This document shows, piece after piece, positions 35,309-57,804 of a stretch of DNA of 64,000 bases. Source of the stretch: Candidatus Omnitrophota bacterium (GTDB lineage: Bacteria; Omnitrophota; Gorgyraeia; Zapsychrales; Aceulaceae). Under the pieces are notes generated by a model. The model made no database searches, was not told the DNA's origin, and worked only from the letters and a program-made list of their open reading frames with translations. Positions within the stretch are counted from its first letter, which is position 1. Each line of letters opens with the position of its first letter. The position numbers and the translations under genes were made by a program. The stretch is taken from positions 27,716-91,715 of the forward strand of contig JAKQPK010000004.1 in the NCBI GenBank assembly GCA_029564765.1. The letters are read 5' to 3'.

Positions 35309-35373
35309 TCACTAACTCCCTGCCTTTCTTTTTCGTATCGCTTAATAAATAAAAATAATCGTATATTGAATTT

Positions 35374-35426
35374 TTACTAATTCCCGATATAATGAATTGG
35401 GTCATTTCCATTCTCAGTTACTAATT
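35374..35426 (+). promoter_or_regulatory. two copies of TTACTAATT (35374-35382 and 35418-35426) flanking a TATAAT, upstream of pstS
   Basis: Exact 9-nt direct repeat 44 nt apart. Candidate regulator-binding sites. Confidence 0.3.
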
Positions 35427-35442
35427 GAAAGAATTTCGTCAA

Positions 35443-36305
35443 TGTTCACAAAACGACACGCGTTTCTGGTTTTTACGCTTTTAATATTCTGTACATCCTG
35501 CATTTTTAATCCACCCTCAAAAAATTCTTTGCAGATCAAAGGTTCGGACACAATGGTAAACCTAATACAGGCTTGGGCAGAGGATTTCATGTCCAAAGAC
35601 CCTGATGTGTTCATTGCTGTTACTGGCGGTGGTTCCGGAACAGGCATAGCCAGCTTGATCAATGGCACATGCGATATCGCGATGACGTCTCGCAACATCA
35701 AACCAAAAGAGATCAAGCTTGCTCAAAAACGCGGGATCGATCCTTTTGAGATCATTGCCGCCTTAGACGGCCTAGCCGTTGTCGTTCACCCTAAAAATCC
35801 AGTTAAAAAACTTACTATTGATCAGCTAGCTCAGATCTTTTCCGGTCATATCACTAATTGGAAAGATGTTGGCGGGATGGACCAAAGTATCGTTGTCCTT
35901 TCTAGGGAAGTAAATTCAGGGACACATATTTATTTTAAAGAACATGTTCTTCGGCAGAATAAAAAAGACTCGAAAGAAGAATTTGCTCCAACAGCGCTTT
36001 TGCTCTCATCGTCACAAGCCATCGCCGATGAAGTCGCGACAAATACAGGCGCAATAGGATATTACGGAATGGGTTATATTTCGCCAAAACATAAGGCGAT
36101 CGCCATTGCGCTTGATGAGCGTTCACCGTATGCGGATCCAACGATCGAAAATGTCATAAACCAGACTTATCCAATATCTAGGCCGCTATATTTGTACACA
36201 AAGGGTGAGCCTCAAGGCGCGATCAAGATGTTCATTGATTTTGCCCATTCACCGCAAGGGCAGGAGATAGTTTTGATCAATGATTTTGTTCCACTGCAGA
36301 AATAA
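35443..36305 (+). CDS. pstS: phosphate ABC transporter substrate-binding protein
   Basis: KGSDTMVNLIQAWAEDF...TGGGSGTGIASLINGTCDIAMTSR PstS signature. Start moved to MFTKRHAF with signal peptide. Confidence 0.85.
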
Positions 36306-36309
36306 TAAT

Positions 36310-37179
36310 ATGCGAAAGATCAAAGAATTTATTATTGAAAAGCTGATATTCTTCTGCGGCCTCGCGTCCATCTTTTTTGTTATCCTGATCTTCCTTTTCT
36401 TACTGAAGGAAGGGCTTTCCTTGCTGACGATCGTCGGCCCCTTTGAATTCCTTGCTGGAAAAAGCTGGTATCCGATCTCAGAACCGCCTCAGTTGGGTAT
36501 TTTACCATTGATCCTTGGCTCATTATTTGTGACTATTGGCGCGGCGATCATCTCTGTACCGATCGGGATAGCCTGCGCGGTCTATATCGCTGAGATCGCG
36601 CCCGCTAAGATCAAAGAGGTCCTTAAAGCGGGTATTGAGCTTTTAGCGGCGATCCCAAGCGTTGTGCTGGGGTTTATCGGCATGATGACCCTCGTTCCCT
36701 GGGTCAAGAATTTATTTGACATCCCCACAGGGTTAACTGCTTTTTCAGGTTCTATTATGCTCGCGTTCATGGCAATGCCAACGATCGTATCTATCGCCGA
36801 AGACGCGCTCTATTCTGTTCCGAAGTCTTATAAAGAAGGAGCTTTGGCTCTGGGGGCCACGCATTGGCAGACCATCTACCGCGTGATCCTGCCAGCGGCT
36901 AGTTCCGGGATCGTCGCGGCGGTCATGTTAGGTATCGGGCGAGTGATCGGAGAAACCATGGCAGTGATGATGATCACAGGCAACGCAGCAGCGATACCAA
37001 AAAGTATCCTGCAGCCCGTGAGAACATTGACGGCGACTATCGCTGCTGAAATGGGTGAGACCGTGGTCGGCAGTGAGCATTATTTTGCTTTGTTCGCGAT
37101 CGGCATTGTTTTATTCGTGATCAGCTTCGCGATCAATGTGACATCTGACTTTTTCTTGCATAAGGATCAAAGAGTATGA
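36310..37179 (+). CDS. pstC: phosphate ABC transporter permease PstC
   Basis: ABC permease with EAA-type loop; position in operon. Confidence 0.85.
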   Translation: MRKIKEFIIEKLIFFCGLASIFFVILIFLFLLKEGLSLLTIVGPFEFLAGKSWYPISEPPQLGILPLILGSLFVTIGAAIISVPIGIACAVYIAEIAPAKIKEVLKAGIELLAAIPSVVLGFIGMMTLVPWVKNLFDIPTGLTAFSGSIMLAFMAMPTIVSIAEDALYSVPKSYKEGALALGATHWQTIYRVILPAASSGIVAAVMLGIGRVIGETMAVMMITGNAAAIPKSILQPVRTLTATIAAEMGETVVGSEHYFALFAIGIVLFVISFAINVTSDFFLHKDQRV

Positions 37180-38021
37180 CATCACTTCAACGACAAAAGA
37201 TCGCATTTGCCCTTTTATTTCTCGCGAACCTTTTGGTCATTGTTCCGGTAGGATTGATCGTCTTCATTATCATCCAAAAAGGATGGCCGGCCATGACATG
37301 GCAGTTCATTACCGATATCCCACGCCAGGGAATGCGTGCCGGCGGCATCTTTCCCGCGATCGTGGGGACCATCTATTTGGTCTCTGGGGCTATCGTTTTC
37401 GCTTTACCCGTCGGTTTGCTGGCAGCGATCTATTTAAGTGAATACGCGAAAGACAACCTTTTAACACGCATCATCAAGCTCGCGATCGTTAACCTCGCGG
37501 GTGTTCCATCGGTCGTTTATGGACTTTTTGGCCTCGTTCTCTTTGTGTCTTTTTGCAAATTCGGCGCGTCGATCCTTTCTGGATCCTTGACACTTGGCAT
37601 TATGATATTGCCGATCATCATCACCGCGTCACGTGAGGCCTTAGAGAGCGTTCCTCATGTTTTTCGAGAGGTCAGCCTATCTCTTGGCGCGAGTAAATGG
37701 CAGACTATTCGCCACATTGTTCTGCCCAACGCCATCCCTGGAATTATTACCGGAACGATCCTGGGGATCGGCCGGGCCGCGGGGGAAACCGCGCCTATCC
37801 TTTTTACGGTAGCCGCTTTTTATCTGCCACGCCTTCCTTCGTCGGTTTTTGATCAGGTAATGGCCTTGCCGTATCACTTGTACGTGATCTCAACACAGGT
37901 CCCTAACGTTGATCCTAAGATCACCTATGGAACAGCGTTGGTTCTATTGATATTGGTGCTTTTTGTTAATTTGATCGCGATCATCATTCGCGCGCGATTT
38001 CGGAAGAAGAAAAAATGGTAA
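37176..38021 (+). CDS. pstA: phosphate ABC transporter permease PstA
   Basis: Second permease paralog, 4-nt overlap with pstC. Confidence 0.85.
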   Translation: MTSLQRQKIAFALLFLANLLVIVPVGLIVFIIIQKGWPAMTWQFITDIPRQGMRAGGIFPAIVGTIYLVSGAIVFALPVGLLAAIYLSEYAKDNLLTRIIKLAIVNLAGVPSVVYGLFGLVLFVSFCKFGASILSGSLTLGIMILPIIITASREALESVPHVFREVSLSLGASKWQTIRHIVLPNAIPGIITGTILGIGRAAGETAPILFTVAAFYLPRLPSSVFDQVMALPYHLYVISTQVPNVDPKITYGTALVLLILVLFVNLIAIIIRARFRKKKKW

Positions 38022-38761
38022 AGATCGATATCCAACGATTAAATATTTGGTTCGGGGCAGCCCAAGCGCTCAAGAATATCACCATGCAGGTGAAAAAAAA
38101 CGAGATCCTTTGCGCGATTGGCCCATCGAACAGCGGAAAAACATCATTCTTGCGCATGCTCAATCGCCTTAATGATCTTACGCTTAGCTTTCGTATGTCC
38201 GGCAGCGTTCTTTTGGATGGCCGCGATATCACAAAAATAGATATCGAGCTGATCCGCAAGAAGATCGGGATGGTGTTCGCGATGCCTTCGCCTTTGCCTT
38301 TATCCGTCTTCGACAATGTCGCATACGGGGTTCGCATGAGCGGTGTCCGTAATAAACACAGCCTCGAGGAGGCTGTGGAAACAGCCCTCAAGCAAGCGTA
38401 TCTTTGGCAAGAAATGAAGGATCGCCTGCATGAATCTGCTTTTAAGCTCTCAGGAGGGCAGCAGCAAAGACTTTGTATCGCTCGGACATTGGCTGTTCAG
38501 CCTGAAGTGATCTTGTTCGATGAACCATGTTCTGGCCTAGATCCGATCTCAACGGCAAAAGTGGAAGAAGCCATGCTAAAGTTGAAAAAAGATTATACGA
38601 TCATCCTTGTGACCAACAATGTCAAGCAGGCGGCTCGCGTCGGCGACCGAACAGCGTTCTTTCTGACCGGAGAACTGATCGAGCTCGATCAGACCGAAAA
38701 AATATTTACAGCGCCTTCTGACCGCCGCACGGATGATTATATTCGAGGGAGATTTGGTTGA
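38015..38761 (+). CDS. pstB: phosphate ABC transporter ATPase PstB1 with degenerate Q-loop and H-loop
   Basis: Walker A GPSNSGKT, signature LSGGQQQR and Walker B ILFDEPC are intact. Q-loop reads GMVFAMPSP (Gln to Ala) and H-loop reads LVTNN (His to Asn). Confidence 0.85.
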
Positions 38762-39507
38762 TGGCAAAGATCGAGATAAAAAACCTTGACCTATGGTATG
38801 GCGATTTTCAAGCGTTAAAAAATATCAATTTAGCGCTGGAAGAAAAACGCATCATCGCCGTTATCGGTCCATCCGGCTGTGGTAAATCCACGCTACTGCG
38901 TGTTTTTAATCGCATGAACGACCTTGTGGAAGGCATTAAAATTAAAGGCCAGTTCGTCATAGACGGTGAGAATATCCTGGACCAGAGGACCAACCTCGTG
39001 ACCCTTCGCAAGAAAGTGGGCATGGTCTTTCAACGCCCGAATCCTTTTCCGCTATCCATCTACGACAACCTTGTTTTTGGGCTTAAGGTCCACGGCATCA
39101 AACGCGACCTTGATCCATTCGTTGAGAAAAGTTTAAAAGCGGTCTTTCTTTGGGATGAGCTAAAAGATCGTCTAAACCGTTCTGCGTTTAGCTTGACGCT
39201 AGAGCAACGTCAACGCTTGTGCATCGCGCGCCTGATCGCTGTTAAACCGGATATCCTTTTGATGGATGAACCCTGTTCCGCCCTGGATCCACAATCAACG
39301 ACTGGCATCGAAGACCTTATGCGCGAGTTAAAAAAGAATTTCACGATCATCATTGTCACGCACAACATGCAACAGGCCGCCCGCGTCTCGGACGAAACGG
39401 GATTCATGCTGCTTGGAGAGCTTGTTGAATTCAATAAAACAGAGGTGATCTTTACAAAACCCCAAGATAGTCGGACCGAGGGTTATATCACAGGACGATA
39501 CGGTTAA
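38758..39507 (+). CDS. pstB: phosphate ABC transporter ATPase PstB2 with degenerate signature motif
   Basis: Walker [11 protein letters not shown]-loop GMVFQRPNP, Walker B LLMDEPC and H-loop VTHNM are intact. Signature reads LTLEQRQR instead of LSGGQQQR. Confidence 0.85.
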
Positions 39508-39516
39508 GGAGGCATC

Positions 39517-40200
39517 ATGCAAAGACATTTTGACGAAGATCTACGTAATTTGAACGCGAACATCATTAAAATGGCATCATTAGCAGAAGATGCCATTCAG
39601 AACGCCACGCGGGCGCTTAAAGACCAAGACCCGGCTTTGGCGCGTACTGTCATAAACAATGACCAACAGATCGATGAAATGGAGCTCTTCATTGAAGAGC
39701 AAGCGATCGACCTCTTGGCCCGTATGCAGCCAATGGCCAGCGACCTTCGTTTTATAACGACAGGAATGAAGATCAACGCGGAACTTGAACGTATCGCGGA
39801 TCTTGCTGTCAATATCGCCCATCGCGTCCTTGAGCTTTCGGGGATGCCGCATTTGAAGCCATTGGTCGATATCCCAAAACTTTCGGCACTGACCTCAAGC
39901 ATGGTCAAGAACGCGATCGATGCGTTCGTAAATCATGATGAAAGTATCGCGCGCAAGGTCATCCTTTCTGATTCTGAGGTCGACCAATTGAATAATGTTA
40001 TTCGTCAAGAGCTGGTCAATGACTACATGATCAAAGACAGCAAGACAGTGACCCGCGCCGTGCCTTTGCTTTTGATCGCGCGACACTTGGAAAGGATCGG
40101 CGATCACGCGACGAATATTGCGGAAGATGTCATTTATATGGTCCACGCCAAGATCGTGAAGCACCATCCTGAAAAGTTAGACGACGGACAATCCATTTAA
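39517..40200 (+). CDS. phoU: phosphate signaling complex protein PhoU
   Basis: Two PhoU repeats containing the conserved ExxxD-type motif (ELERIADLAVNIA, ERIGDHATNIAEDVIYM). Confidence 0.9.
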   Translation: MQRHFDEDLRNLNANIIKMASLAEDAIQNATRALKDQDPALARTVINNDQQIDEMELFIEEQAIDLLARMQPMASDLRFITTGMKINAELERIADLAVNIAHRVLELSGMPHLKPLVDIPKLSALTSSMVKNAIDAFVNHDESIARKVILSDSEVDQLNNVIRQELVNDYMIKDSKTVTRAVPLLLIARHLERIGDHATNIAEDVIYMVHAKIVKHHPEKLDDGQSI

Positions 40201-40212
40201 CGCGGAGGATCC

Positions 40213-41763
40213 ATGCCCACTTCTTTAGATCTTCAGGTCAAGCCGTTAGGTAAGAAGGCAGGCTTTGATAACGAAAAATACCTCTGCGAACAAGCCAATG
40301 AGATCCTCGAGCGCGTAAAGCGGTTCGATAACAAGCTTTATCTTGAGTTTGGCGGAAAGCTTTTGTTTGATTATCACGCTTCTCGTGTCTTACCGGGTTT
40401 TGACCCAAACGTCAAGATCAAACTCCTCAAGCGTCTTGAAAATGACGCGGACATTATCTTGTGTATCCACGCGGGCGATATTGAGCGACGAAAGATCCGC
40501 GCGGATTTTGGGATCACTTATGATGTCGACGCGTTAAAGCTGATCGATGACCTTAAGGACTGGGGGATCGATATCTGCGCGGTCGTGATCACTCGCTTCA
40601 ATCAACAACCTGCCGCGACCATTTTTAAGAACAAGCTTGAACGATTGGGGGTACGTGTTTACACGCACGCCTTCACGAAAGGATATCCGACGAATGTTGA
40701 CCTGATCGTTAGCGAAGAAGGTTACGGCGCGAATGAATATATCTCAACGACCAAGCGCCTTGTGATCGTGACCGGCCCAGGGCCGGGCAGCGGCAAACTT
40801 GCCACGTGCCTCTCACAGCTTTATCATGAACATAAACAAGGGATCAACGCGGGCTACGCGAAATTTGAAACATTCCCAATTTGGAGCATTCCGCTCAAGC
40901 ATCCCGTTAATGTCGCCTATGAATCCGCAACGGCTGACATCAAGGATTTTAATATGATCGATCCTTTTCATTTGCAAGCGTACGACAAACTGGCCATCAA
41001 TTACAATCGTGATGTGGAAGTATTCCCGGTGGTCAAACGTATCCTTGAAAAGATCACGGGTGATGAAATTTACCATTCGCCAACAGATATGGGAGTCAAT
41101 CGCGCAGGATTCGGCATTACCGATGATCAAGCGGTCCAGGAAGCCGCGTGCCAAGAGATCATCCGACGTTATTTTCGGTATAAATGTGAGTACGCGCTGG
41201 GCCTGGTCGATAAGGAATCCGTTGAGCGAGGAGAGCTGCTGATGAAGGAGATGAACATCAACACCAGTGATCGCAAGGTCGTCGAAGCCGCCCGAACGGC
41301 CGCGGAACAAGCGCAACAACAAGGCAAAGGCAATAAAGGGATATTTTGCGGGGCAGCTATCGAACTGGCCGATGGCCGTATCATCACGGGCAAGAATTCC
41401 TCGCTCATGCACGCGGCATCAAGCCTGATCTTAAACGCGCTCAAGGAATTGGCCGATGTCCCTGATAAGATCCCGCTATTGTCCAAAACATCCATTGACT
41501 CGATATCGAACCTGAAAAAAGATATTTTAAAGATGAAAACATTAAGCCTTGATCTAGATGAAGCCTTGATCAGCTTAAGTATTAGCGCGACAACAAGCCC
41601 TGTTTCACAACTGGCCTTAGAAAAGATCAGTGAATTACGTGGCTGCGAGATGCACATGACCCATATCCCAACGCCAGGGGACGAAGCTGGCTTACGCCGG
41701 TTAGGGATCAATCTGACAACAGATCCAAACCTATCGTCCAGCAGCCTCTGTGACTATTCTTAA
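40213..41763 (+). CDS. UPF0371/DUF1846-like protein of unknown function
   Basis: N-terminal FDNEKYL...LYLEFGGKLLFDYHASRVLPGFDPNVK resembles the UPF0371 family. Starts 13 nt after phoU. Confidence 0.5.
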   Translation: MPTSLDLQVKPLGKKAGFDNEKYLCEQANEILERVKRFDNKLYLEFGGKLLFDYHASRVLPGFDPNVKIKLLKRLENDADIILCIHAGDIERRKIRADFGITYDVDALKLIDDLKDWGIDICAVVITRFNQQPAATIFKNKLERLGVRVYTHAFTKGYPTNVDLIVSEEGYGANEYISTTKRLVIVTGPGPGSGKLATCLSQLYHEHKQGINAGYAKFETFPIWSIPLKHPVNVAYESATADIKDFNMIDPFHLQAYDKLAINYNRDVEVFPVVKRILEKITGDEIYHSPTDMGVNRAGFGITDDQAVQEAACQEIIRRYFRYKCEYALGLVDKESVERGELLMKEMNINTSDRKVVEAARTAAEQAQQQGKGNKGIFCGAAIELADGRIITGKNSSLMHAASSLILNALKELADVPDKIPLLSKTSIDSISNLKKDILKMKTLSLDLDEALISLSISATTSPVSQLALEKISELRGCEMHMTHIPTPGDEAGLRRLGINLTTDPNLSSSSLCDYS

Positions 41764-41764
41764 A

Positions 41765-42553
41765 ATGCGCAAAAGAATATTTTTATCCATACGCTCCTTT
41801 CTTTTTCTTTCGCTCTGCCTGGTGTTTTACGCATGCAGCCCCTCAAAACCAACAACGCCAAGTGTCATCTTTCAATCTTCTGTTATGGACGCGCTTTCTC
41901 AAGGTGTCTTTGAGGGGGATCTAACCTGCGCAGAGCTTTTGCAGCAAGGAGATTTTGGCCTTGGCACCTTCAATGACCTTGACGGCGAAATGATCGTTCT
42001 GGATGGCCAAGTCTATCAAGTCAAATCTGACGGGAGCGTCCTGAAGCCAGACCCATCAACACAACTGCCTTTCGCGACCGTGACATTCTTTAGGCCTGAT
42101 CAGAAGATCTCCTTGGATAAAGAACTGAGCTACGCTCAAATAAAAGACCTTTTGGATGCCGCTTTGCCGTTTAAGAATATCTTTTATGCTATCCGTATCG
42201 ACGGAAAATTCTCCCAGGTTACTGTGCGCAGTGTTCCTCCGCAGTGGAAGCCTTATCCCGATCTCGCTCAAGCCATAAGCGAACAAAGAATATTCCAGAA
42301 AAATGATCTTGCCGGGACCATCATCGGTTTTTGGTTCCCTCATTACGCGAAAAATATCAATGCCACCGGATATCATTTTCATTTCATTGATCGAACGCGA
42401 ACATTCGCCGGCCACTTACTGGACGCGCGATTGATATCCGCAACAGCATCGATCCAAAGCGTTTACAAACTGAATATTGCGTTACCAAAAACAGCGAACT
42501 TTGATAGTACCGACCTAACACAAGAACAACACGTCATAATACCTGAAAAATAG
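41765..42553 (+). CDS. alpha-acetolactate decarboxylase family protein with signal/lipoprotein peptide
   Basis: GDFGLGTFNDLDGEMIVLDGQVYQ and IRIDGKFSQVTVRSVP...TGYHFHFI align closely with ALDC. Hydrophobic N-terminus ends in a Cys. Confidence 0.8.
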   Translation: MRKRIFLSIRSFLFLSLCLVFYACSPSKPTTPSVIFQSSVMDALSQGVFEGDLTCAELLQQGDFGLGTFNDLDGEMIVLDGQVYQVKSDGSVLKPDPSTQLPFATVTFFRPDQKISLDKELSYAQIKDLLDAALPFKNIFYAIRIDGKFSQVTVRSVPPQWKPYPDLAQAISEQRIFQKNDLAGTIIGFWFPHYAKNINATGYHFHFIDRTRTFAGHLLDARLISATASIQSVYKLNIALPKTANFDSTDLTQEQHVIIPEK

Positions 42554-42556
42554 AAT

Positions 42557-43252
42557 ATGGATGATCACGCGGTCATTGCTGGGTCGGTCACGATCCGGCC
42601 TTATCATACGAGCGATCGTGACGCGCTACGGCGTATAAGCTGCGCGACAGCTTTTTTGGGCCTGCCCTTATCATTATTCGTTGATGATGATGTCATCGTC
42701 GCGGATATCCTGACGCGATACTACACGGACTTCGAACCGCGATCTTGCTTTGTTGCTGTCGTTGGGAATACCGTTGTTGGCTATATCATTGGATCAACGG
42801 ACACGAAAAAGGCTCGGCAGATCTTTATGCGGCAGATCATGATGCCCGCATTATGGCGCGCGGTCAGAAAAGGCATTTTCCTTAAGAAAAATGCCTTGCG
42901 ATTCCTTAGGCATCTTATGGTCAGCGTGATCAAAGGTGAATTCCGCGATCCGGATTTCTCGCGCCTCTATCCCGCGACCTTGCATATCAACATTGACAAG
43001 AACTTTCATCGTCATCGCATAGGGTCTAAATTGATCGCGCGATATCTGGAGTATCTGCAAAACGATCATATTGCCGGAGTGCATTTGGGCACGATCTCTT
43101 CAAGCGCTAAGGAATTTTTTATCAAGAATGGTTTTTCACTTTTATATAGCGGCCGTCGCTCATATTTATGCTATATTACCAAAGACATCGCGAACTATTA
43201 TATTCTAGGAAAAAACTCTCAGAACAAGTTAACGTATGACATTCTTCCGTAA
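42557..43252 (+). CDS. GNAT family N-acetyltransferase
   Basis: Acetyl-CoA-binding-like RHRIGSKLIARYLEY region. Confidence 0.55.
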   Translation: MDDHAVIAGSVTIRPYHTSDRDALRRISCATAFLGLPLSLFVDDDVIVADILTRYYTDFEPRSCFVAVVGNTVVGYIIGSTDTKKARQIFMRQIMMPALWRAVRKGIFLKKNALRFLRHLMVSVIKGEFRDPDFSRLYPATLHINIDKNFHRHRIGSKLIARYLEYLQNDHIAGVHLGTISSSAKEFFIKNGFSLLYSGRRSYLCYITKDIANYYILGKNSQNKLTYDILP

Positions 43253-44651: not shown

Positions 44652-44661
44652 AAGGAGGGAC

Positions 44662-45997: not shown

Positions 45998-46031
45998 TAT
46001 CCTTGATCACAGCTAAAGAGGTATTCTGCAT

Positions 46032-48830: not shown

Positions 48831-48852
48831 GCTTTTTCTTCCTTTTTCATAT

Positions 48853-48868
48853 TTCACGCAAAGTTCAC
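48853..48868 (+). promoter_or_regulatory. Pho-box-like direct repeat TTCAC-N6-TTCAC (11-bp periodicity)
   Basis: TTCACgcaaagTTCACacac read directly downstream of phoR and upstream of small ORF, porin and pstS2. Confidence 0.35.
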
Positions 48869-48958
48869 ACACTCTCCATATCACCGTGACAGCTTCTTTT
48901 TATACTCAAAGCACCATATTCATTGCGAATAACGTAGGGTGACGAGAGGAGGTGAATC

Positions 48959-49156
48959 ATGCACCAGGAAATCCAGATATTTTCAGCACTGGATCAAGAC
49001 ATATTTATGAGCCAACTACGTTCGCAAATCCATAAACTTAATACAATTATTTTTAATCTGGAAAATCAAAGGACAGATTTCTCATATGCGGCAATGCTCG
49101 TAAAAGAGATCGAAAAGAATTTACGGCGTATCCGCAAAACATGGCTGGAAAACTAA
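48959..49156 (+). CDS. small hypothetical protein (65 aa) with strong SD
   Basis: GAGGAGGTG-6 nt-ATG. Predicted helical, no recognisable motif. Confidence 0.45.
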   Translation: MHQEIQIFSALDQDIFMSQLRSQIHKLNTIIFNLENQRTDFSYAAMLVKEIEKNLRRIRKTWLEN

Positions 49157-49169: not shown

Positions 49170-50468
49170 ATGAAAAAATTATTTATGATCGCAGTGCTTG
49201 CATTGCTGAGCGTATGCGTCATGGCGCCGCAGGCAAAAGCAGGCGAAGTCGACATGCTTATCCAAAAGCTTGTCGAAAAAGGCATCTTGACTCCTGGCGA
49301 AGGAGCCACCTTGATTGTGGAAACCAAGGAAGAGGTTAAAAAACAACTGGCTTCCGGTAAATCCGAAAGCGTACCCTCATGGGTTCAAACCATGAAGCTT
49401 AAAGGTGATTTTCGCTTTCGCTATCAATTTGACAGACACACAAGCACATCGAACGAAAACCGTGCTCGTATGCGCGCTCGTGTCGGCGTTGAAGCAAAAG
49501 CCAATGATAAGATGAAAGTCGGTATTGGAATCGCGACCGGTAAAGTAAATGATCCACGCTCAACGAATATTACCTTAGGTCAGACCGGAAGCAAAGACTC
49601 CACTTTCAATACGAACACCCCAGGCTCATTTAAAAATATTATCTTAGATTATGCCTACGGTGAGTATGCTTTTAACAATAACCTCTCGCTTATAGCTGGT
49701 AAGTTTAGCAATCCATTATGGCGCGTCACAGACCTTCTCTGGGATGGAGACATCAACCCTGAAGGTGTTGCCGTAAACTTAACACACAAATTATCCACAT
49801 CTATAGATCTATTCATGAACAATTTATTGTTCATCTTAGATGAAAATACATCCGTAGAATCAAAATATCCGATGATGGGTGCAATTCAGCCTGGATTTAA
49901 CTACGCGATAAGCGATTCTTTGAAATTAAAAGGTGCTGTCACGGGTTATTTCTTTAGCGGTGTTGAAAAACGTGCATCATTTAGAAACCGCTCAACCAAT
50001 ACACTTAACGGCAGTGTTTATAAGTATAACTATAATTCCGTTAACCCAAGCATGGAATTCAGCATCAAAGAACCGTTTGGCGGCATTGTTCCTTCCGCGT
50101 CTATCTTCAGTGAAGGCGTTTTCAATGTTTCCGAAGATGTTGATAATGCCCGTGGCGGTTTTGCTGCTGGCGTAAAGTTTGGAGCGGAAAGAGTCAGCAA
50201 TAAAGGCGACTGGCAGGCAAGACTGATCTATGGCAAATTAAGCCGTGATGCCTGGCTTGACATCTTCCCGGATTCAGATCGTTACAGCGGAAGAACTAAT
50301 ATGAAAAGTTATGAAGCGATCTTTTCCTATGGGTTAGGAAAGAACACATCGCTTGATTTTGATTATTACTATAGCCAAGACTTGAACAAGGTTGCCACCT
50401 CAAGCTCAGGCCCAGCAGGATATAGGCCGTCCCATATGTTGCAGGTTGACTGGAATCTAAAGTTCTAA
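49170..50468 (+). CDS. outer-membrane porin, candidate phosphate-selective porin
   Basis: Signal peptide, beta-barrel pattern, C-terminal WNLKF. Immediately precedes pstS2. Confidence 0.5.
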   Translation: MKKLFMIAVLALLSVCVMAPQAKAGEVDMLIQKLVEKGILTPGEGATLIVETKEEVKKQLASGKSESVPSWVQTMKLKGDFRFRYQFDRHTSTSNENRARMRARVGVEAKANDKMKVGIGIATGKVNDPRSTNITLGQTGSKDSTFNTNTPGSFKNIILDYAYGEYAFNNNLSLIAGKFSNPLWRVTDLLWDGDINPEGVAVNLTHKLSTSIDLFMNNLLFILDENTSVESKYPMMGAIQPGFNYAISDSLKLKGAVTGYFFSGVEKRASFRNRSTNTLNGSVYKYNYNSVNPSMEFSIKEPFGGIVPSASIFSEGVFNVSEDVDNARGGFAAGVKFGAERVSNKGDWQARLIYGKLSRDAWLDIFPDSDRYSGRTNMKSYEAIFSYGLGKNTSLDFDYYYSQDLNKVATSSSGPAGYRPSHMLQVDWNLKF

Positions 50469-50486: not shown

Positions 50487-51299
50487 ATGAAAACTCTTAA
50501 TAAAATTCTGCTTACCGGGCTTGCGGTCTTGAGTATCGCAATGCCTGCTTTTGCAGAAAAGATCGTTGTTACGGGCTCAACAACAGTTTTACCGCTTTCA
50601 CAAAAAGCCGCGGAAGTTTTTATGCAAAACAATCCTAATGCGGATATTTCTATACGCGGCGGGGGTTCCGGTGTTGGGATAGCTTCCATCATTGATGGTA
50701 GTTGTGATATTGCTAATTCATCACGACCGATCAGAGATGTTGAGCTTCAAAAAGGTGCTTCCAACGGCCGCGACATCAAGGCACACATTGTTGCTATGGA
50801 TGGGATCGCGATCGTTGTCCACCCTTCGAACGGGATCAGCGCTTTGACCAAATCCCAAGTAAGAGATATTTATACCGGGAAAATTTCCAATTGGTCTCAA
50901 GTTGGAGGAAAAAACGAAAAGATCGTCGCCATCTCTCGTGATACCTCCAGCGGAACCTTTGAAGCGTTCATGGAGCTTGTTTTGGATAAGCAAAAGGTGC
51001 GTCCTGATGCCATTATGCAAGCATCAAATCAGGCGATCGCAACAACTGTCGCACGTACGCCAAATGCGATCGGCTACGTTGGACTTGGCTTTCTTTCCGG
51101 TGATATTAAAGCGGTTACAATCGACGGTGTAATGCCTTCCAAGGAAACGGTTTTACTTGGGAAATATAAGGTTGGACGTCCGCTGTTCATGTATACCAAC
51201 GGCGCTCCTAAAGGCCTCGCTAAAGATTATCTTGACTTCATCAAAAGTGCTCAAGGACAAAGCATTGCTGATGAGTTAGGGTATGTTGGATTAAAATAA
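50487..51299 (+). CDS. pstS: phosphate ABC transporter substrate-binding protein, second copy
   Basis: TGSTTVLPLSQKAAEVF...GGGSGVGIASIIDGSCDIANSSR. Confidence 0.85.
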   Translation: MKTLNKILLTGLAVLSIAMPAFAEKIVVTGSTTVLPLSQKAAEVFMQNNPNADISIRGGGSGVGIASIIDGSCDIANSSRPIRDVELQKGASNGRDIKAHIVAMDGIAIVVHPSNGISALTKSQVRDIYTGKISNWSQVGGKNEKIVAISRDTSSGTFEAFMELVLDKQKVRPDAIMQASNQAIATTVARTPNAIGYVGLGFLSGDIKAVTIDGVMPSKETVLLGKYKVGRPLFMYTNGAPKGLAKDYLDFIKSAQGQSIADELGYVGLK

Positions 51300-51381: not shown

Positions 51382-52272
51382 ATGTCATTATTTCGTCTTA
51401 AAGAAAAGATCATACAAGGCGTTTTTACTGTTTTGGCATTCTCATCATTGCTTTTTCTTGTTGGGATCATCTTTGTCCTCTTTAAAGAAGGCCTTCCAAT
51501 CTTTAAGGATGTTAAAATATCAGATTTCTTATTTGGCCGTTTTTGGTATCCTACATACGAACCTCCAGAGTTCGGCGTCTTGCCATTGATCGTTGGATCA
51601 TTCTATGTTTCCTTAGGGGCAATGTTCGTGTGTGTTCCTCTGGGTATCGGAAGCGCTCTTTATATCAATGAGATGGCAAGCTACAAGCAAAAAGCTATCT
51701 TGAAGCCTCTCATTGAGATCCTGGCAAGCGTTCCATCTATTATCTATGGCTTCTTTGCTATGGCTATCCTCGCGCCATTCTTGCAGAAAACGTTCAACAT
51801 CCCTATCGGTCTTTGCACCCTGAACGCAAGTATTATTTTAGGGGTAATGGCAACGCCGACGGTTTGTAGCCTTGCTGAAGATGCCCTCAGCTATGTCCCG
51901 CGCTCCTTTCGCGAAGCTTCTTTTGCCGTAGGCGCGACCCGCTGGCAAACATTGATCAAGGTTGTTATTCCAGCCGCAGGATCAGGGATATCGACTGCTG
52001 TGATCCTTGGTATGAGCCGCGCGATCGGAGAAACCATGACCGTCTTGATGGCCGCTGGAGGAGCGGCGATCATTCCCACATCTATTTTTGATCCTGTCCG
52101 CCCAATGACCGCCGCCATTGCCGCGGAAATGGGAGAAGCTCCTGTAGGGGGAGACCATTATCATGCGCTTTTTGCCATTGCATTGGCTTTATTTTTAATA
52201 ACATTCTTTTTTAATATTCTTGCGGAGATCATTAGCCGGCGTTTTCGCATCAAATTGGGATTATCCGGATGA
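51382..52272 (+). CDS. pstC: phosphate ABC transporter permease PstC, second copy
   Basis: Paralogous to 36310-37179. Confidence 0.85.
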   Translation: MSLFRLKEKIIQGVFTVLAFSSLLFLVGIIFVLFKEGLPIFKDVKISDFLFGRFWYPTYEPPEFGVLPLIVGSFYVSLGAMFVCVPLGIGSALYINEMASYKQKAILKPLIEILASVPSIIYGFFAMAILAPFLQKTFNIPIGLCTLNASIILGVMATPTVCSLAEDALSYVPRSFREASFAVGATRWQTLIKVVIPAAGSGISTAVILGMSRAIGETMTVLMAAGGAAIIPTSIFDPVRPMTAAIAAEMGEAPVGGDHYHALFAIALALFLITFFFNILAEIISRRFRIKLGLSG

Positions 52273-53120
52273 ACCAAAACACTATTCAAAAGATTGGCTT
52301 TGGATTCCTATCGTTTTCTGTTATCGCAACGATCTCATTCTTGTTCATTATTATTTTCTTTATCGCAGCCCGTGGTATCCGTGTTATTTCCTGGGAGTTC
52401 TTAACAGCCGGCCCTCGCGATGGTATGACAGCAGGCGGAGTCGCGCCAGCCATCGTTGGAACTTTTTATTTAACCCTGGGAGCGATTATTTTCGCTCTGC
52501 CCTTAGGCATCGCATGTGCGATCTATCTTTGTGAATATTCGCCTAAGGGGGCCGTTGTCAACATTATCCGCTTAAGTATTAACAATTTAGCCGGCGTCCC
52601 TTCTGTTGTCTTCGGGCTTTTTGGCTTAGCAGTGTTCGTAAAATTCTTCAACTTTGGCGCCTCTATTCTTTCGGGAAGTTTAAGCCTTGGTATTTTGGTC
52701 TTACCGCTCATTATTTCAGCAACTCAGGAAGCATTGCTGGCGATCCCGCATTCAATACGTGAAGCCTCCATGGCCTTAGGTGCGACAAAATGGCAAACCA
52801 TTAAAAAGATTGTTTTGCCTGCAGCCGTTCCAGGAATCTTAACAGGAACGATCCTTAGTATCGGCCGTGTCGCAGGAGAGACCGCTCCTATTTTATTTAC
52901 TGCGGCAGCATTTTATTTAAAAGGATACCCGAAATCCGTTTTTTCAGAGGTCATGGCCCTTCCTTACCACATCTACGCTCTGATGACAGAAGGCGTTTAT
53001 CCTGAAAAACAAACAGCGATCGCCTATGGCTGCAGTTTTATCTTGCTGGTCTTGGTTCTTTTGGTTTCCGGCCTGGCGATCTTTATCCGTCAACGACAGA
53101 GGAGTTATTATCATGGATAA
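52269..53120 (+). CDS. pstA: phosphate ABC transporter permease PstA, second copy
   Basis: Paralogous to 37176-38021. Confidence 0.85.
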
Positions 53121-53877
53121 TCTACCGATCAAAATGCGCGCGCATGGCGTCGACTTTTTTTACGGCCAACACCACGCCCTAAAGAACATCAATCTCGATA
53201 TCGCCAAAAACCATGTCACGGCGATCATCGGGCCATCGGGATGTGGAAAATCAACCTTTATCCGCCTTTTAAACCGTATGAATGAAATGGTGCCCAACAC
53301 GACCTTAACGGGCAAGATCTATCTTGATTGCCTGGATATTTTAAGCCCGTGCATCGATCCGGCGGAAGTCCGACGTCGCGTCGGCATGGTCTTTCAAAAA
53401 CCAAATCCGTTTCCAAAAAATATCTTTGAAAATATCAGCTACGGTCTTGAAGTCAACGGGATCAAGAACAAACAGCTTATTGAAGATCGTGTCGTCGAGT
53501 CGTTAAAAAAATCTGCTATTTGGGATGAGGTCAAGGATAGACTGCATGATAGCGCGCTAAGGCTTTCCGGGGGTCAGCAGCAGCGTCTTTGCATCGCGCG
53601 TTGTCTGGCGATCCAGCCGGAAGTCCTCTTGTTCGATGAGCCGTGCGCCAGCTTGGATCCGATCTCAACACGCAAGATCGAAGAACTCATTTTAGAGCTA
53701 AAAAAAGACTACACGATTGCCATTGTCACGCACAACATGCAACAGGCCGCGCGTATTTCAGATTATACGGGATTTTTTCTTTTGGGGGACCTGATCGAAT
53801 TTGATAAAACAGAAAAGATCTTTAAAGCGCCGCATGACTCTCGAACGGAAGACTATATTACGGGAAGGTTCGGATAA
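53113..53877 (+). CDS. pstB: phosphate ABC transporter ATPase PstB, fully canonical
   Basis: [45 protein letters not shown] and [13 protein letters not shown] are all consensus. Start moved to MDNLPIK after GAGGAG. Confidence 0.85.
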
Positions 53878-54268: not shown

Positions 54269-54276
54269 GAGAAAAA

Positions 54277-54942
54277 ATGCAACGACATTTTGATGAAGAA
54301 TTACGTAAACTCAAAGACGGGATCCTCATAATGGCCACGTCTGTTGATCAAGCCATCTTGGAATCGGTTGAGGCGCTAAAAACACTGGATGCGTCCAAGG
54401 CAAAAGACGTGATCACTTGTGATCAAAAGATCGACGAGATGGAAAACACTTTGCAAGAGCATTGCCTGAATTTACTTGCCTGTCAGCAACCTATGGCCAT
54501 TGATCTGCGATTCTTAACCATGGCCATGAGCATCACAACAGACCTTGAGCGCATGGCAGACCTCGCAGTCGATATCGCACAGCGTGTTTGCGAGCTTGCG
54601 GATAAACCACTCTTAAAACCTCTGATCGATATTCCTCAATTAACTGTGATCGCCCAACAAATGATCAAGAAAGCGATCAACGCTTTCTTGAACAATGACG
54701 CGGACCTCGCGCGCAAAGTGATCTTGATGGATAACGAAGCGGATCGCTTGCGCAATCTCATCCAAAAAGAGCTCATCTGTGACTATATGGCGAAAGATCC
54801 AACGACAGCAACCCGCGCTGTTCCGCTGCTGTTGATCGCAAGGCATCTGGAGCGGATCTGCGACCATGCCACAAACATCGCCGAAGATATCATTTATATG
54901 ATAGACGCGAAAGTGGTCAAACATCACCCTGAAAATCTTTAA
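54277..54942 (+). CDS. phoU: PhoU, second copy
   Basis: Paralogous to 39517-40200 and shares the MQRHFDE N-terminus. Confidence 0.9.
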   Translation: MQRHFDEELRKLKDGILIMATSVDQAILESVEALKTLDASKAKDVITCDQKIDEMENTLQEHCLNLLACQQPMAIDLRFLTMAMSITTDLERMADLAVDIAQRVCELADKPLLKPLIDIPQLTVIAQQMIKKAINAFLNNDADLARKVILMDNEADRLRNLIQKELICDYMAKDPTTATRAVPLLLIARHLERICDHATNIAEDIIYMIDAKVVKHHPENL

Positions 54943-54996
54943 AAAGATTTTTATTTAATTATTTGTAAAATACCCAGCAAGTTCTATAATGACACT

Positions 54997-55019
54997 AAAG
55001 CGCCCTATAAAGGCGCTTT
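54997..55019 (+). terminator. 8-bp hairpin AAAGCGCC/GGCGCTTT after the pst2-phoU2 operon
   Basis: Read directly. Weak T-tract. Preceded by a TTGTAA-16-TATAAT promoter-like element, so it may be a 5' stem of the next transcript instead. Confidence 0.35.
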
Positions 55020-55061
55020 AGGCATTTTAACAGAACTTTTACAAATATTAATGGAGGATGT

Positions 55062-55526: not shown

Positions 55527-55553
55527 TGAGCGGACAGCTAACGCGTACTTTCA

Positions 55554-55587
55554 AAGCGCCAGAAAAAGTTTCTGGCGCTTTTTCTTT
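55554..55587 (+). terminator. intrinsic terminator, 10-bp stem AAGCGCCAGA/TCTGGCGCTT plus T-tract
   Basis: Read directly after the PG-binding lipoprotein gene. Confidence 0.65.
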
Positions 55588-55611
55588 GCGGCCAACAGGT
55601 CTTTTGATCGC

Positions 55612-56874
55612 ATGAACACAACAGCCTCTACCTACGATATCGCTATCATCGGTGCCGGAGCAGCTGGATGTATGGCAGCCATCCGCGCAAGTGATGGATG
55701 CCGCCGTGTGATTCTGATCGACAAGAATCAAGCGATCGGATGTAAATTGCTTTTGACCGGTCATCATCGCTGCAATCTGACCAATACAGCTTCAATCGAC
55801 AATATGGTCGCGGCATTCGAGCACGCGGGACGCTTCTTAAAGCCGTCCTTGCTCACGTTCTCCAATCAGCACCTTCAAGATTTTTTTGCGCGTTATGGCC
55901 TTGCGCTGAAAGTTGAGGACAACGGCCGGGTCTTTCCCGCAACGGATCGATCACGATCGGTCATCGCGGTCCTTGAAGAACTTCTGAAGAAAAATTCTGT
56001 TACCACATGCTTTAATACCTGTGTTCTTGATATCGAAAAAAATGACGATCTTTTCTGCCTGCGCACGCAGGATCCTGTTTCGATACGCGCGAAAAAGCTC
56101 ATCATCGCCACAGGCGGATGCTCTTATCCGAAAACCGGCTCGACAGGTGACGGTGCGCGCTTCGCGAAAATATTTGGCCACAAAACCCTTACTGTTTTTC
56201 CAGCCCTGACCCCGCTCAAGACAGAGGACGCTTGGGCAAAGTCGCTGCAAGGGATCTCCATAAAAAATGTTACCGTCGCCTTGATCGACCGAACAAAAAA
56301 GGTCATTTGCGGGCCAGGGGAAATGCTGTTCACTCATTTTGGTGTCTCTGGTCCTCTGATCCTGGACATAAGTCGATCGGTCTTAAAAGCCCTGGCTCAA
56401 AAGCCGACAGCAACGCTTTTCTTGAATTTCCTTCCTTCAACTAAGCCTCAGGACCTCGAAAAAGAGATCCTCAAAGCATGCTCTCGGCCAATGGCTTCAA
56501 CTGTCGGTGACTTTCTGCGCGACTACCTGCCCAAGAACGTGGCGAAAACCTTGCTAACGCTTATAACGCTCCCAGCTGAAAAACGATTGAACCAGATCAC
56601 GAAGAATGAGCGAAAAGCCCTTATGATGATCTTGCAAAAACAGCCTCTGACGATCAATGGATGCCTGTCTTGGGAAAGCGCGATGGCCACCGAAGGAGGC
56701 GTCGCCATGGAAGACATCAACCCGAAAACAATGGGATCACGCCTTGTGCCAGGCCTTTATTTTGCCGGCGAAACCATCGAGGGCCGCGGCCCCAGTGGCG
56801 GATACAACCTGCAGCAAGCCTTCTCCACCGGATATTTAGCAGGGGAATCGGCGAAAAAAAGCCTTCAAGAATAG
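55612..56874 (+). CDS. HI0933-like NAD(FAD)-utilizing dehydrogenase family flavoprotein
   Basis: YDIAIIGAGAAGCMAAIRA and GHHRCNLTN typical of the HI0933/YhiN family. Confidence 0.8.
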   Translation: MNTTASTYDIAIIGAGAAGCMAAIRASDGCRRVILIDKNQAIGCKLLLTGHHRCNLTNTASIDNMVAAFEHAGRFLKPSLLTFSNQHLQDFFARYGLALKVEDNGRVFPATDRSRSVIAVLEELLKKNSVTTCFNTCVLDIEKNDDLFCLRTQDPVSIRAKKLIIATGGCSYPKTGSTGDGARFAKIFGHKTLTVFPALTPLKTEDAWAKSLQGISIKNVTVALIDRTKKVICGPGEMLFTHFGVSGPLILDISRSVLKALAQKPTATLFLNFLPSTKPQDLEKEILKACSRPMASTVGDFLRDYLPKNVAKTLLTLITLPAEKRLNQITKNERKALMMILQKQPLTINGCLSWESAMATEGGVAMEDINPKTMGSRLVPGLYFAGETIEGRGPSGGYNLQQAFSTGYLAGESAKKSLQE

Positions 56875-56884
56875 CAAAAGGTTT

Positions 56885-56912
56885 TTGCTAATTTTTAAAA
56901 ATCTCGTATAAT
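56885..56912 (+). promoter_or_regulatory. promoter-like TTGCTA-16-TATAAT upstream of ppk2
   Basis: Hexamers read directly, 17 nt before the ATG. Confidence 0.4.
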
Positions 56913-56928
56913 AAAAATACTTTTATTT

Positions 56929-57804
56929 ATGATATCTAAAATAAAAAACTTCATTCAACCTTACAAGATCACCAGCGGAAAAAATTTCCGCCTCAAGGAT
57001 TTTGATCCAGCGGATACAGCGCACCTGCGTTCAAAGGAACAAGCCGAAGAACTCCTTTCTCAAGGCATCAAGCGCGTGCGTGCGCTGCAAGAAAAGCTCT
57101 ACGCCCAGGACCAATGGTCACTGCTGTTGATCTTTCAGGCCATGGATGCCGCGGGCAAAGACGGAGCGATCAAACACGTGATGTCCGGCGTCAACCCTCA
57201 GGGCTGCCAGGTGTTTTCCTTCAAAGAACCGTCCCGCGAAGAACTTGACCACGATTTCTTATGGCGGACAACCTGTCGATTACCCGAGCGCGGCCGTATT
57301 GGCATCTTTAACCGCTCTTACTATGAAGAAGTCCTCACTGTTTGCGTTCATCCCAAGATCTTGCAGAACCAAAAGCTTCCAAAAAAACTTATCACAAAAG
57401 ACATCTTTGGCCAACGCTATGAAAGTATCCGCGATCTTGAAAAACATCTTGCGCGCAATGGCACATCCGTTCACAAATTTTTCCTTAATATTTCCAAGCA
57501 GGAGCAGCACAAACGGCTTTTACGCCGCCTGGATGACCCCTGCCGCAACTGGAAATTTTCCATGGCAGACCTTCGCGAGCGTGAATACTGGGATGCGTAC
57601 ATGAAAGCGTATGAAGAGACGATCAGGAAAACAGCAACAAAGAACGCGCCCTGGTATGTTGTGCCAGCGAATAACAAGTGGTTCTCGCGCCTTGTCATCG
57701 CCGCGGCTGTCATTGACGCGTTAGAGAGCTTGGACCTGGCATTCCCGCAGCTGAACGCGCGGCAGAAGAAAGAACTTTTAAGCGCAAAACGGTCATTAGC
57801 CTAA
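56929..57804 (+). CDS. ppk2: polyphosphate kinase 2 (polyphosphate:nucleotide phosphotransferase)
   Basis: DAAGKDG Walker A-like P-loop, CRLPERGRIGIFNRSYYEEVL and PPK2 lid region. Confidence 0.85.
   Translation: MISKIKNFIQPYKITSGKNFRLKDFDPADTAHLRSKEQAEELLSQGIKRVRALQEKLYAQDQWSLLLIFQAMDAAGKDGAIKHVMSGVNPQGCQVFSFKEPSREELDHDFLWRTTCRLPERGRIGIFNRSYYEEVLTVCVHPKILQNQKLPKKLITKDIFGQRYESIRDLEKHLARNGTSVHKFFLNISKQEQHKRLLRRLDDPCRNWKFSMADLREREYWDAYMKAYEETIRKTATKNAPWYVVPANNKWFSRLVIAAAVIDALESLDLAFPQLNARQKKELLSAKRSLA

Follow-up and report, generated by a model that had tools for sequence, protein, structure and literature searches.

Why would a bacterium keep two complete Pst importers for phosphate next to each other, and do the two have different jobs? 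The question is raised by a locus of a Candidatus Omnitrophota bacterium (GenBank assembly GCA_029564765.1), situated in a stretch of 64,000 nt of contig JAKQPK010000004.1 (positions 27,716 to 91,715 of the forward strand; the whole stretch is referred to as the window and position 1 is its first letter). On the plus strand, between 35442 and 54942, the locus consists of pstS1-C1-A1-B1a-B1b-phoU1, five other genes, cupin-phoB-phoR, a small open reading frame (ORF) of 65 residues (the sORF), a Porin_5 gene and pstS2-C2-A2-B2-arsC-phoU2 (Table 1). Genes were named by Pfam and NCBIfam profile scans and their starts were refined beyond the mechanical ORF calls. An earlier note on this DNA had read the locus as two Pst systems of distinct ATPase architecture kept under one regulator pair, and had proposed functional specialisation rather than redundancy, for example in affinity or arsenate discrimination. 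Dual Pst loci, like Pho boxes and porins induced by starvation, are well known, and as first described this one is a well-organised but ordinary Pho cluster; what appears to be new about it, judging from motifs, is a complementary degenerate ATP site in the motor of the first importer, pst1, and to a lesser degree the conserved place of arsC beside or within pst operons.

The PstB ATPases

When compared with the canonical ATPase motifs, the single PstB of the second system (PstB2) agreed in every motif (H-loop VTHN) while both ATPases of pst1 departed from them. PstB1a has GPSNSGKT as its Walker A motif, Ala instead of the Q-loop Gln and Asn instead of the H-loop His (VTNN), and keeps the signature (LSGGQQQR) and the DEP motif. 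In PstB1b the catalytic motifs are complete and the signature is LTLEQ (LTLEQRQR) instead of LSGGQ. In dimers of the ATP-binding cassette (ABC) family the two subunits build each ATP site together, one contributing its Walker, Q-loop and H-loop motifs and the other its signature. Since the catalytic motifs of one protein pair with the signature of the other, all defects of PstB1a and PstB1b would fall on a single composite site and leave the other fully consensus. The distinct ATPase architectures proposed in the earlier note can thus be specified as a complementary degenerate/consensus pair of ATP sites in pst1 and a fully canonical PstB in pst2. Going by the residues replaced, the degenerate site would presumably not hydrolyse ATP.

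The arrangement recurs among relatives and fits 40 orthologs of PstB1a and 35 of PstB1b wherever each motif could be read, with a degenerate PstB1b signature in all 32 readable sequences of the 35, and 19 of 19 single PstB proteins are canonical. The 120 homolog clusters closest to PstB1a agree wherever their motifs are readable; their named members all belong to Omnitrophota and are annotated merely as phosphate ABC transporter ATP-binding protein. When representatives clustered at 50% identity were compared, the majority of neighbours proved canonical, the pattern being present in a few further clusters. One of these, and the sole case outside the low-GC lineage of the window, was found in a genome of 69% GC (GCA_031372565.1, locus L106, 3310-7550), where pstS-C-A are followed by a PstB with GPAGGGKT, Q-to-A and H-to-N and then by a PstB with LPLEQ, no phoU being present after the pair. 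In total, about 160 PstB1a and 35 PstB1b homologs, plus this one genome, support the asymmetry.

A search of the open-access literature revealed no description of degenerate PstB sites. In E. faecalis both members of the tandem pair, PstB1 and PstB2, have canonical motifs (PMC12096839), degenerate ATP sites are described as a feature of exporters in a structural review (PMC3971661), and among the importers of B. subtilis they are noted only in the fused RbsA and NupO (PMC11466899). We therefore suggest, tentatively and with our confidence falling a little short of evenly divided, that the pst1-type operon represents a widespread and undescribed class of Pst importer with an obligate PstB heterodimer and a single catalytic ATP site, and that in Omnitrophota it forms one half of a two-tier phosphate economy, the other half being a canonical porin-Pst-ArsC module driven by a Pho box. 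If this is true, pst1 would be a type I ABC importer whose design follows that of the asymmetric exporters, its motor would spend one ATP per cycle instead of two, and the PstB pair would present an asymmetric surface to PhoU and PhoR signalling.

Relation between the two Pst sets

Related loci, here referred to by number, were collected in two scans. A scan with PhoR, using one genome per species, gave one contig at 98% identity (L001, a near-twin of the window) and sixteen loci at 45–56%, most of them from Candidatus Omnitrophota, and a metagenome scan with PstS1 gave 80 loci at 63–83% identity carrying pstSCAB-B-phoU. The sORF protein and ArsC each have an exact counterpart recorded from a Candidatus Omnitrophota MAG. 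Between pst1 and pst2 the identity is 41% for PstS, 49% for PstC, 58% for PstA, 53–54% for PstB and 60% for PhoU, and for each type orthologs of at least 65% identity are present in many related loci. The PstA sequences sort into 46 of pst1 type, 13 of pst2 type and 6 others. GC and third-codon-position GC (GC3) of both sets lie inside the spread of the window, making their composition unremarkable, and only arsC and the sORF have a somewhat low GC3 of 0.39, where the window averages 0.50 (standard deviation 0.06).

The conserved core in the related loci is phoB-phoR-(receiver)-Porin_5-pstSCAB-(arsC)-phoU. Both types are found in tandem with one phoBR on a single contig in five cases (L050, L051, L054, L058 and L101), and in L092 they are about 8.5 kb apart. 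In many relatives the pst1-type operon stands alone beside phoBR in the 10–20 kb examined, where a second system could be located elsewhere in the genome. As judged from this divergence and distribution, the two Pst sets are old paralogs that have repeatedly been kept together, neither a recent duplication nor a recent transfer. The choice between ancient paralogy and recent duplication, which the earlier note had left to phylogeny, is hence settled by old paralogs 41–60% identical with orthologs of their own, and the recent horizontal acquisition of one copy, which would have spoken against its interpretation, has left no sign in GC or GC3.

Pho box, promoters and transcription units

When analysing the region directly 3' of phoR a Pho box was identified, consisting of TTCACG, TTCACA, a weak TCCATA and GTGACA with an 11-bp period and followed 9 nt further on by TATACT. 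The same layout after the phoR stop codon is common to 13 related loci (TTCACA, 5 nt, TTCACA, a weak third repeat and GTnACA in 11-bp register, 9 nt, TATACT), so that direct repeats with an 11-bp period replace the -35 box upstream of a -10 box and are conserved in front of Pho genes. A position weight matrix (PWM) was derived from eleven relatives, the window and L001 being excluded. It gave 24.8 bits at 48852 and 12.0 bits for the next best site on both strands of the 64 kb. At a threshold of 12 bits most relatives have a single box in their ~20 kb, with additional weaker boxes about 130 bp upstream of phoB in L003, L015 and L016. The site at 48852 was singled out solely by this matrix and not by the raw pattern TTCAC-N6-TTCAC, which shows no enrichment in the window (3 matches, 4.2 expected). 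With one strong Pho box in 64 kb, situated upstream of the sORF and the porin gene, only the unit sORF-porin-pstS2CAB2-arsC-phoU2 appears to have a visible link to PhoB. The matrix detected no Pho box upstream of pstS1 or of cupin/phoB in the window, and the proposal that both systems are kept under one regulator pair is consequently not upheld for pst1.

Upstream of pst1 a σ70-type promoter (TTGAAT-16-TATAAT, 10/12 matches) was identified at 35366-35393 on the plus strand. Its hexamers and a downstream block, TGGGTCATTTCCATTC (35398-35413), are conserved in L026 and L064, two loci with the shared order snf-pst1-phoU1-DUF1846-ALDC-GNAT-PIG-L-AlgE. In other lineages pst1-type operons do carry a Pho box, of the TTCACA type in L012 and L088 and of a TTT(T/A)ACA type in many loci, the latter being the same type that heads their porin operon, and because of this the lack of a box at pst1 appears to be a feature of the sub-lineage of the window.

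After start refinement no two neighbouring genes between pstS1 and phoR are more than 34 nt apart and no promoter-like element was seen before the cupin gene, from which we infer that pstS1 to phoR, including phoBR, form one long transcription unit. At the other end of the locus a hairpin (54997-55019) follows phoU2 and likely ends the second unit; after it a promoter-like site for a lipoprotein gene is found.

Some further observations concern these control regions. The TGGGTCATTTCCATTC block, of which no second copy was found in the window, is a possible operator or transcript-start element, and a direct repeat, TTACTAATT (35376-35384 and 35419-35427), flanks the -10 region of pst1. A structured leader RNA was considered and rejected, since 35398-35460 folds no better than shuffled sequences (z = 0.95). 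In L003 (11841 and 12621) and L004 (11840 and 12620) a second full-length OmpR-type regulator and a stand-alone receiver are located between phoR and the porin gene, each with a strong Pho box, an extra layer that is missing from the window. In L012 (2702-3438) a pst1-type operon follows phoBR, and a Pho box with a small, signal-peptide-bearing beta-barrel-like gene takes the place of the Porin_5 gene.

Phosphate-binding proteins and ArsC

To compare their ligand sites, PstS1 and PstS2 were aligned with PstS of E. coli and PBP-1 of C. perfringens, an alignment independently confirmed by those to structures in the PDB. The best solved matches of both are 4Q8R/4GD5 and 1TWY, with E-values from 1e-36 to 1e-41. 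Both have Ser at the position of Asp56 in E. coli and retain the Arg, the SGT loop and the Asp-Arg pair, which makes them S-type in the sense of PMC5381212 and PMC13614923, the latter describing the D-type and S-type classes. The corresponding motifs in PstS1 and PstS2 are TSR/SSR, SRExxSGT/SRDxxSGT, LDGLA/MDGIA and SRPL/GRPL. Eight of the nine ligand residues are identical and the sole difference is found at the position of Thr12 in PBP-1, with GSDT in PstS1 and its clade and GSTT in PstS2 and its clade. PstS2 keeps all phosphate ligands of PBP-1 except the proposed proton acceptor, where Ser13 is replaced by Thr, an exchange treated as equivalent in PMC13614923; the GSDT/WAE motif of PstS1 is also present in PDB entries 4OMB and 4PQJ.

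The specificity-determining residues of the two proteins are accordingly not identical, as the earlier note needed them not to be. Its suggestion that one PstS might discriminate better against arsenate is not supported, both being S-type without the Asp that forms the low-barrier hydrogen bond (PMC5381212, PMC13614923). Of the specialisation that it proposed, old paralogy, the ATPase difference and the non-identical PstS ligand residues stand, and a single regulator pair for both systems and arsenate discrimination find no support.

For the S-type PBP-1 the discrimination between phosphate and arsenate is only about 150-fold (PMC5381212), which gives a rationale for a co-expressed arsenate reductase. 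ArsC of the window has the motifs of the LMWP type, a P-loop with Cys8-X5-Arg14 (VCIENSCRSQIAEGF) in the NSCRSQ(M/I)AEG context of such reductases and the general acid Asp101. Cys8 is conserved, and a further conserved pair, Cys82-X3-Cys86, differs in spacing from Cys82/Cys89 of pI258 and Cys80/Cys82 of Synechocystis. The nearest solved structures are arsenate reductases (E 7e-28 to 2.5e-17), including the Synechocystis protein (2L17, E 7e-28) and pI258 ArsC (E 1e-24), with low-molecular-weight protein tyrosine phosphatases at E 4e-7 or worse, and the identical protein at NCBI is named 'arsenate reductase ArsC'. Arsenate is thus the probable substrate of ArsC, and its putative role is to reduce arsenate that enters with phosphate; together with a weakly discriminating S-type PstS it would be a compact answer to the arsenate problem in phosphate scavenging.

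When comparing relatives, arsC was found between pstB and phoU in L005, L007, L008, L017, L044 and L092, and after pstB in L013 and L050, where no phoU was detected after arsC. Of five further ArsC homologs (60–68% identity) four are located between pstB and phoU and the fifth adjoins phoU. In nearly every case sampled, this ArsC subfamily is placed next to or inside a pst operon. Another LMWP subtype follows phoU in L003, L004 and L061. On a Ratteibacteria-labelled contig (L110, 3681-4393) a Cupin_2 gene precedes arsC with a 4-nt overlap, the pair lying end to end with a pst operon of the other strand, next to its phoU; this Cupin_2 protein was considered as a relative of the cupin of the window and no relation could be detected (E 0.13).

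Regulator pair, small protein and porin

The response regulator contains receiver and Trans_reg_C domains and scores below the TIGR02154 equivalog cut-off (296.2 bits); it is an OmpR-family protein that is PhoB-like by context. The kinase passes the PnpS model NF046044 (cut-off 400) and falls under the cut-off of TIGR02966, phoR_proteo (302.7 against 334.2 bits), its architecture being a transmembrane segment, sCache-like, HAMP, PAS, HisKA and HATPase domains. The TAATG overlap between the cupin gene and phoB that the earlier note had pointed out is real and located at 46362-46366, and the cupin-phoB pair was also found in L001 and L101.

The sORF is the first gene of the Pho-box unit. As regards the small ORF of the earlier note, an ORF at 48721-48942 overlaps the end of phoR, has no family match and is probably spurious, and the gene with a ribosome-binding site and homologs is the one given in Table 1. 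No Pfam family matched the 65-residue protein, for which a helical hairpin was predicted with confidence (pLDDT 90), and a word-based homolog search gave only two near-identical proteins. Homologs are located directly upstream of the porin gene in nine loci (L001, L002–L004, L013, L050, L054, L058 and L101), share the stretches LRSQLxxLxxIL and ESLKEIExNLRxIRK, and are in several relatives preceded by a stand-alone receiver domain. A relation to regulators of the CsoR/RcnR/FrmR type was rejected, the best fold-search matches (E 0.2–0.5) not being significant.

An outer-membrane pore gene under a Pho box belongs to the established knowledge of Pho regulons. The porin gene is always located upstream of pstS in relatives, and among porin families only Porin_5 was reported, with no match to Porin_O_P (PF07396).

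A two-unit model and its alternatives

The window probably contains a core phosphate-acquisition locus of two transcription units with different jobs. Unit 1 (about 35366-48830) would start at the conserved σ70-type promoter without a Pho box and most likely span pstS1CAB1aB1b-phoU1, the five middle genes and cupin-phoB-phoR, thereby supplying a basal Pst importer, PhoU and the two-component sensor together, presumably by constitutive expression. Its motor would be an obligate PstB1a/PstB1b heterodimer in which the degenerate signature of PstB1b is set against a PstB1a with defective Q-loop and H-loop and a variant Walker A, so that ATP would be hydrolysed only at the composite site formed by the catalytic motifs of PstB1b and the LSGGQ of PstB1a. 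Unit 2 (48852 to about 55019) would start at the four-repeat Pho box that replaces the -35 element. At low phosphate, phosphorylated PhoB would switch on the small helical protein, the Porin_5 pore, ArsC, PhoU2 and the second Pst importer, which would run on a canonical PstB homodimer. With neither PstS having the strongly discriminating Asp, the co-transcribed ArsC would reduce the arsenate that enters with phosphate.

Several points weigh against this model and the importer class proposed above. PstB1a retains the Walker A Lys and the Walker B Asp-Glu, making residual hydrolysis at the degenerate site possible. The Pho boxes of pst1-type operons in other lineages leave room for an unrecognised or distal PhoB site at pst1, and the block following its -10 box could be an operator for another regulator. 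The putative operon boundaries depend on spacing and on consensus scans, and such sites are no commoner in the window than in shuffled sequence. No connection with phosphate is known for the five middle genes. ArsC is under both NCBIfam equivalog cut-offs (118.1 against 157.6 bits for TIGR02689 and 107.5 against 174.3 for TIGR02691), and neither arsR nor an arsenite efflux gene (ArsB, Acr3) was found in the 64 kb.

The plainest alternative is redundancy, with both Pst systems being ordinary high-affinity importers of one PhoBR regulon and their differences drift without functional meaning. The same type of Pho box on both pst operons in L050, L051, L054 and L101 would fit this, as would the eight shared ligand residues. 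However, the two types stay distinct across lineages in which PhoR is just 45–56% identical, the complementary degeneracy of PstB is present in every ortholog with readable motifs, and in the lineage of the window pst1 has a conserved -35/-10 promoter and no Pho box; we regard redundancy as unlikely. Slightly less likely again is that pst1 is mainly a phosphate sensor, a half-dead ATPase pair that together with PhoU1 and co-transcribed phoBR holds PhoR off when phosphate is plentiful. Its degenerate ATP site and the co-linearity of pst1-phoU1 with phoBR agree with such a role, and S. pneumoniae has as master negative regulator of its two-component system the PhoU that belongs to the constitutive Pst (PMC4913102), yet PstS1, PstC1 and PstA1 are complete proteins that clear their family cut-offs by a wide margin and a single consensus ATP site suffices for transport in other ABC systems (PMC3971661). 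The many relatives with a pst1-type operon alone beside phoBR, allowing for a second system elsewhere, also argue for transport.

The embedding of arsC in the pst2 operon, and the occurrence of pst genes in arsenic islands (PMC3834237), could suggest that pst2-arsC handles arsenate, by uptake or detoxification, and is not a phosphate scavenger. This we consider improbable, as a Pho box immediately behind phoBR opens the unit, PstS2 retains the phosphate ligands of PBP-1 apart from the equivalent Ser13 to Thr exchange, the orthologous operons L006 and L011 lack arsC, and the window has no aio or arr genes in addition to lacking arsR, arsB and acr3. That one Pst system was recently acquired by horizontal transfer is hardly to be credited: the low GC3 of arsC and the sORF is what speaks for it, whereas neither set leaves the range of GC and GC3 seen across the window, both types occur commonly in Omnitrophota, the phylum of all their named homologs, and the local gene order is shared with relatives. 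The two-unit model with an asymmetric pst1 motor is accordingly the reading we retain.

Gene content of the locus and its surroundings

The coordinates are collected in Table 1. All gene classes named in the earlier note were recovered on the plus strand by the Pfam and NCBIfam scans, at about the positions it gave, except that the number of genes between phoU1 and the cupin gene is five and not six.

Table 1. Features of the phosphate locus in the window, with the profile scores or other remarks on which each assignment is based
Feature	Position	Strand	Evidence and remarks
pstS1	35442-36305	+	TIGR02136 255.7 bits; S-type, GSDT type; signal peptide, possibly lipoprotein
pstC1, permease	36280-37179 (alternative start 36310)	+	TIGR02138 299 bits
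pstA1, permease	37176-38021	+	TIGR00974 296.5 bits
pstB1a, ATPase, degenerate half-site	38015-38761	+	TIGR00972 346.6 bits
pstB1b, ATPase, degenerate signature motif	38761-39507	+	TIGR00972 367.9 bits
phoU1	39517-40200	+	TIGR02135 215.9 bits
Five middle genes together	40213-45997	+	Pfam/NCBIfam scans
DUF1846 gene	40213-41763	+	
ALDC-like (alpha-acetolactate-decarboxylase-family) protein gene	41765-42553	+	Lipoprotein-type signal peptide
GNAT gene	42557-43252	+	
PIG-L deacetylase gene, membrane-anchored, 471 residues	43236-44651	+	
AlgE-like outer-membrane barrel gene	44663-45997	+	
Cupin gene (Cupin_2, 110 residues)	46032-46364	+	TAATG overlap with phoB
phoB-like OmpR-family response regulator	46364-47068	+	TIGR02154 236.2 bits
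phoR, PhoR/PnpS-type histidine kinase, 590 residues	47058-48830	+	NF046044 448.7 bits
Pho-box promoter (predicted)	48852-48906	+	PWM 24.8 bits; layout common to 13 related loci
sORF, 65-residue helical-hairpin protein	48959-49156	+	Homologs in relatives; AGGAGG ribosome-binding site
Porin_5 outer-membrane porin	49170-50468	+	PF16930 E 4.8e-48; signal peptide
pstS2, S-type, GSTT type	50487-51299	+	281.7 bits
pstC2	51382-52272	+	290.6 bits
pstA2	52269-53120	+	296.1 bits
pstB2, single canonical PstB	53113-53877	+	389.3 bits
arsC, LMWP-type, 129 residues	53879-54268	+	1 nt past pstB2, 8 nt before phoU2
phoU2	54277-54942	+	TIGR02135 193.7 bits
ppk2 (PPK2 family)	56929-57804	+	TIGR03709 385.9 bits; PF03976 222.9 bits

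All nine PstS, PstC, PstA and PstB proteins pass their NCBIfam cut-offs (TIGR02136, TIGR02138, TIGR00974 and TIGR00972), PstB1a only narrowly (cut-off 343.2 bits), and PhoU1 and PhoU2, tested for two PhoU domains, both pass TIGR02135 (130.25 bits). The mechanical ORF starts are too long for pstS1, the AlgE-like gene, phoR, pstB2 and arsC, for which the likely starts are 35442, 44663, 47058, 53113 and 53879, respectively. The five middle genes follow phoU1 with gaps of at most 12 nt, in an order kept only in the closest relatives (L001, L026 and L064), and may modify or export a surface polymer; no function was found for DUF1846 in the literature on it.

The gene ppk2, which the earlier note had placed shortly after phoU2 as part of the locus, is indeed present 2 kb past phoU2, without any conserved or regulatory link to it. 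Two unrelated genes, for a peptidoglycan-binding lipoprotein and an HI0933-type flavoprotein, lie in between, as does a terminator with a 13-bp stem (55553-55581), and ppk2 has a promoter-like site of its own (56885-56912). It was not found in any related locus examined and, being absent from all of these, provided with its own promoter-like site and located beyond a strong terminator, was rejected as a member of the locus. The protein passes TIGR03709 (cut-off 247.2 bits) and scores 419.2 bits for the ADP-polyphosphate phosphotransferase equivalog, below its cut-off of 450.

Elsewhere the window contains housekeeping and transport genes of an ordinary kind. Just upstream of the locus, at 27671-33435, genes for a MarR protein, an outer-membrane factor, a membrane-fusion protein and an AcrB-type RND pump form an ordinary efflux operon, and an ORF between acrB and an SNF transporter gene (33368-33724) has a weak P-II-like match (E 0.003, under the cut-off) and may be spurious. 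A glycogen-type cluster at 17743-22278 consists of genes for a CBM48 protein, a GT4/GT5 glycosyltransferase, a DUF4912 protein and a GH57 branching enzyme. Two large ORFs, at 2792-4606 on the minus strand (604 residues) and at 22271-23716 on the plus strand (481 residues), gave no Pfam match at E 1e-6.

Comparison with known systems

The PhoP boxes of B. subtilis are repeats of TT(A/T/C)ACA spaced by about 5 nt, four per promoter. The predicted sites described here resemble them in having hexamer direct repeats with an 11-bp period, four positions and no -35 box, and differ in consensus, which is TTCACA here and TTT(T/A)ACA in sister lineages. The footprinted Pho box gives a means of predicting Pho regulons in Omnitrophota, to our knowledge a phylum without cultured members. 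With PhoE of E. coli and OprP/OprO of Pseudomonas the locus shares an outer-membrane pore gene under a Pho box (phoE is listed in PMC3834237), but the pore belongs to another fold family, Porin_5, and its gene is located inside the pst operon. Chromosomal linkage of arsenate and phosphate genes is known from arsenic islands with ars, aio and pst/pho genes (PMC3834237), whereas here a single arsC is placed between pstB and phoU of a Pho-box operon with no arsR, arsB/acr3 or aio nearby.

Ser in place of the low-barrier-bond Asp is shared with the S-type proteins PBP-1 (4Q8R; PMC5381212), SphX/Sll0540 of Synechocystis (PMC13614923) and 4OMB/4PQJ. The GSTT of PstS2 resembles the GSTS of PBP-1, and GSDT with WAE in PstS1 resembles 4OMB. 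Unlike these, the two subtypes here are paired in one locus.

The closest parallel in organisation is found in S. pneumoniae, with Pst1/Pst2, PnpRS and PhoU1/PhoU2 (PMC4913102), where one constitutive and one inducible Pst system are combined with a single two-component system, PnpRS being under negative control by the constitutive system's PhoU and the other system being induced >100-fold. In both cases there are two distinct Pst-PhoU systems, the two-component genes are directly upstream of the inducible operon and one Pst system appears to be independent of the regulator; the kinase of the window also passes the PnpS model. The differences are that the present bacterium is a diderm, that its inducible operon adds a porin, a small protein and ArsC, and that its non-induced system appears to be co-transcribed with the regulator genes and has an ATPase pair with a degenerate site.

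Adjacent pstB pairs within one operon, implying a heterodimeric motor, are known from Firmicutes (PstB1/PstB2 of E. faecalis, PMC12096839; PstBA/PstBB of B. subtilis, PMC11466899), but in the locus described here complementary defects would remove one composite site. In this respect the pst1 pair resembles heterodimeric exporters such as TM287/288 (PMC3971661, PMC7756269), where degenerate catalytic motifs face the degenerate signature of the partner and the second site is canonical. Those are exporters with fused transmembrane domains, while pst1 would be a binding-protein-dependent type I importer.

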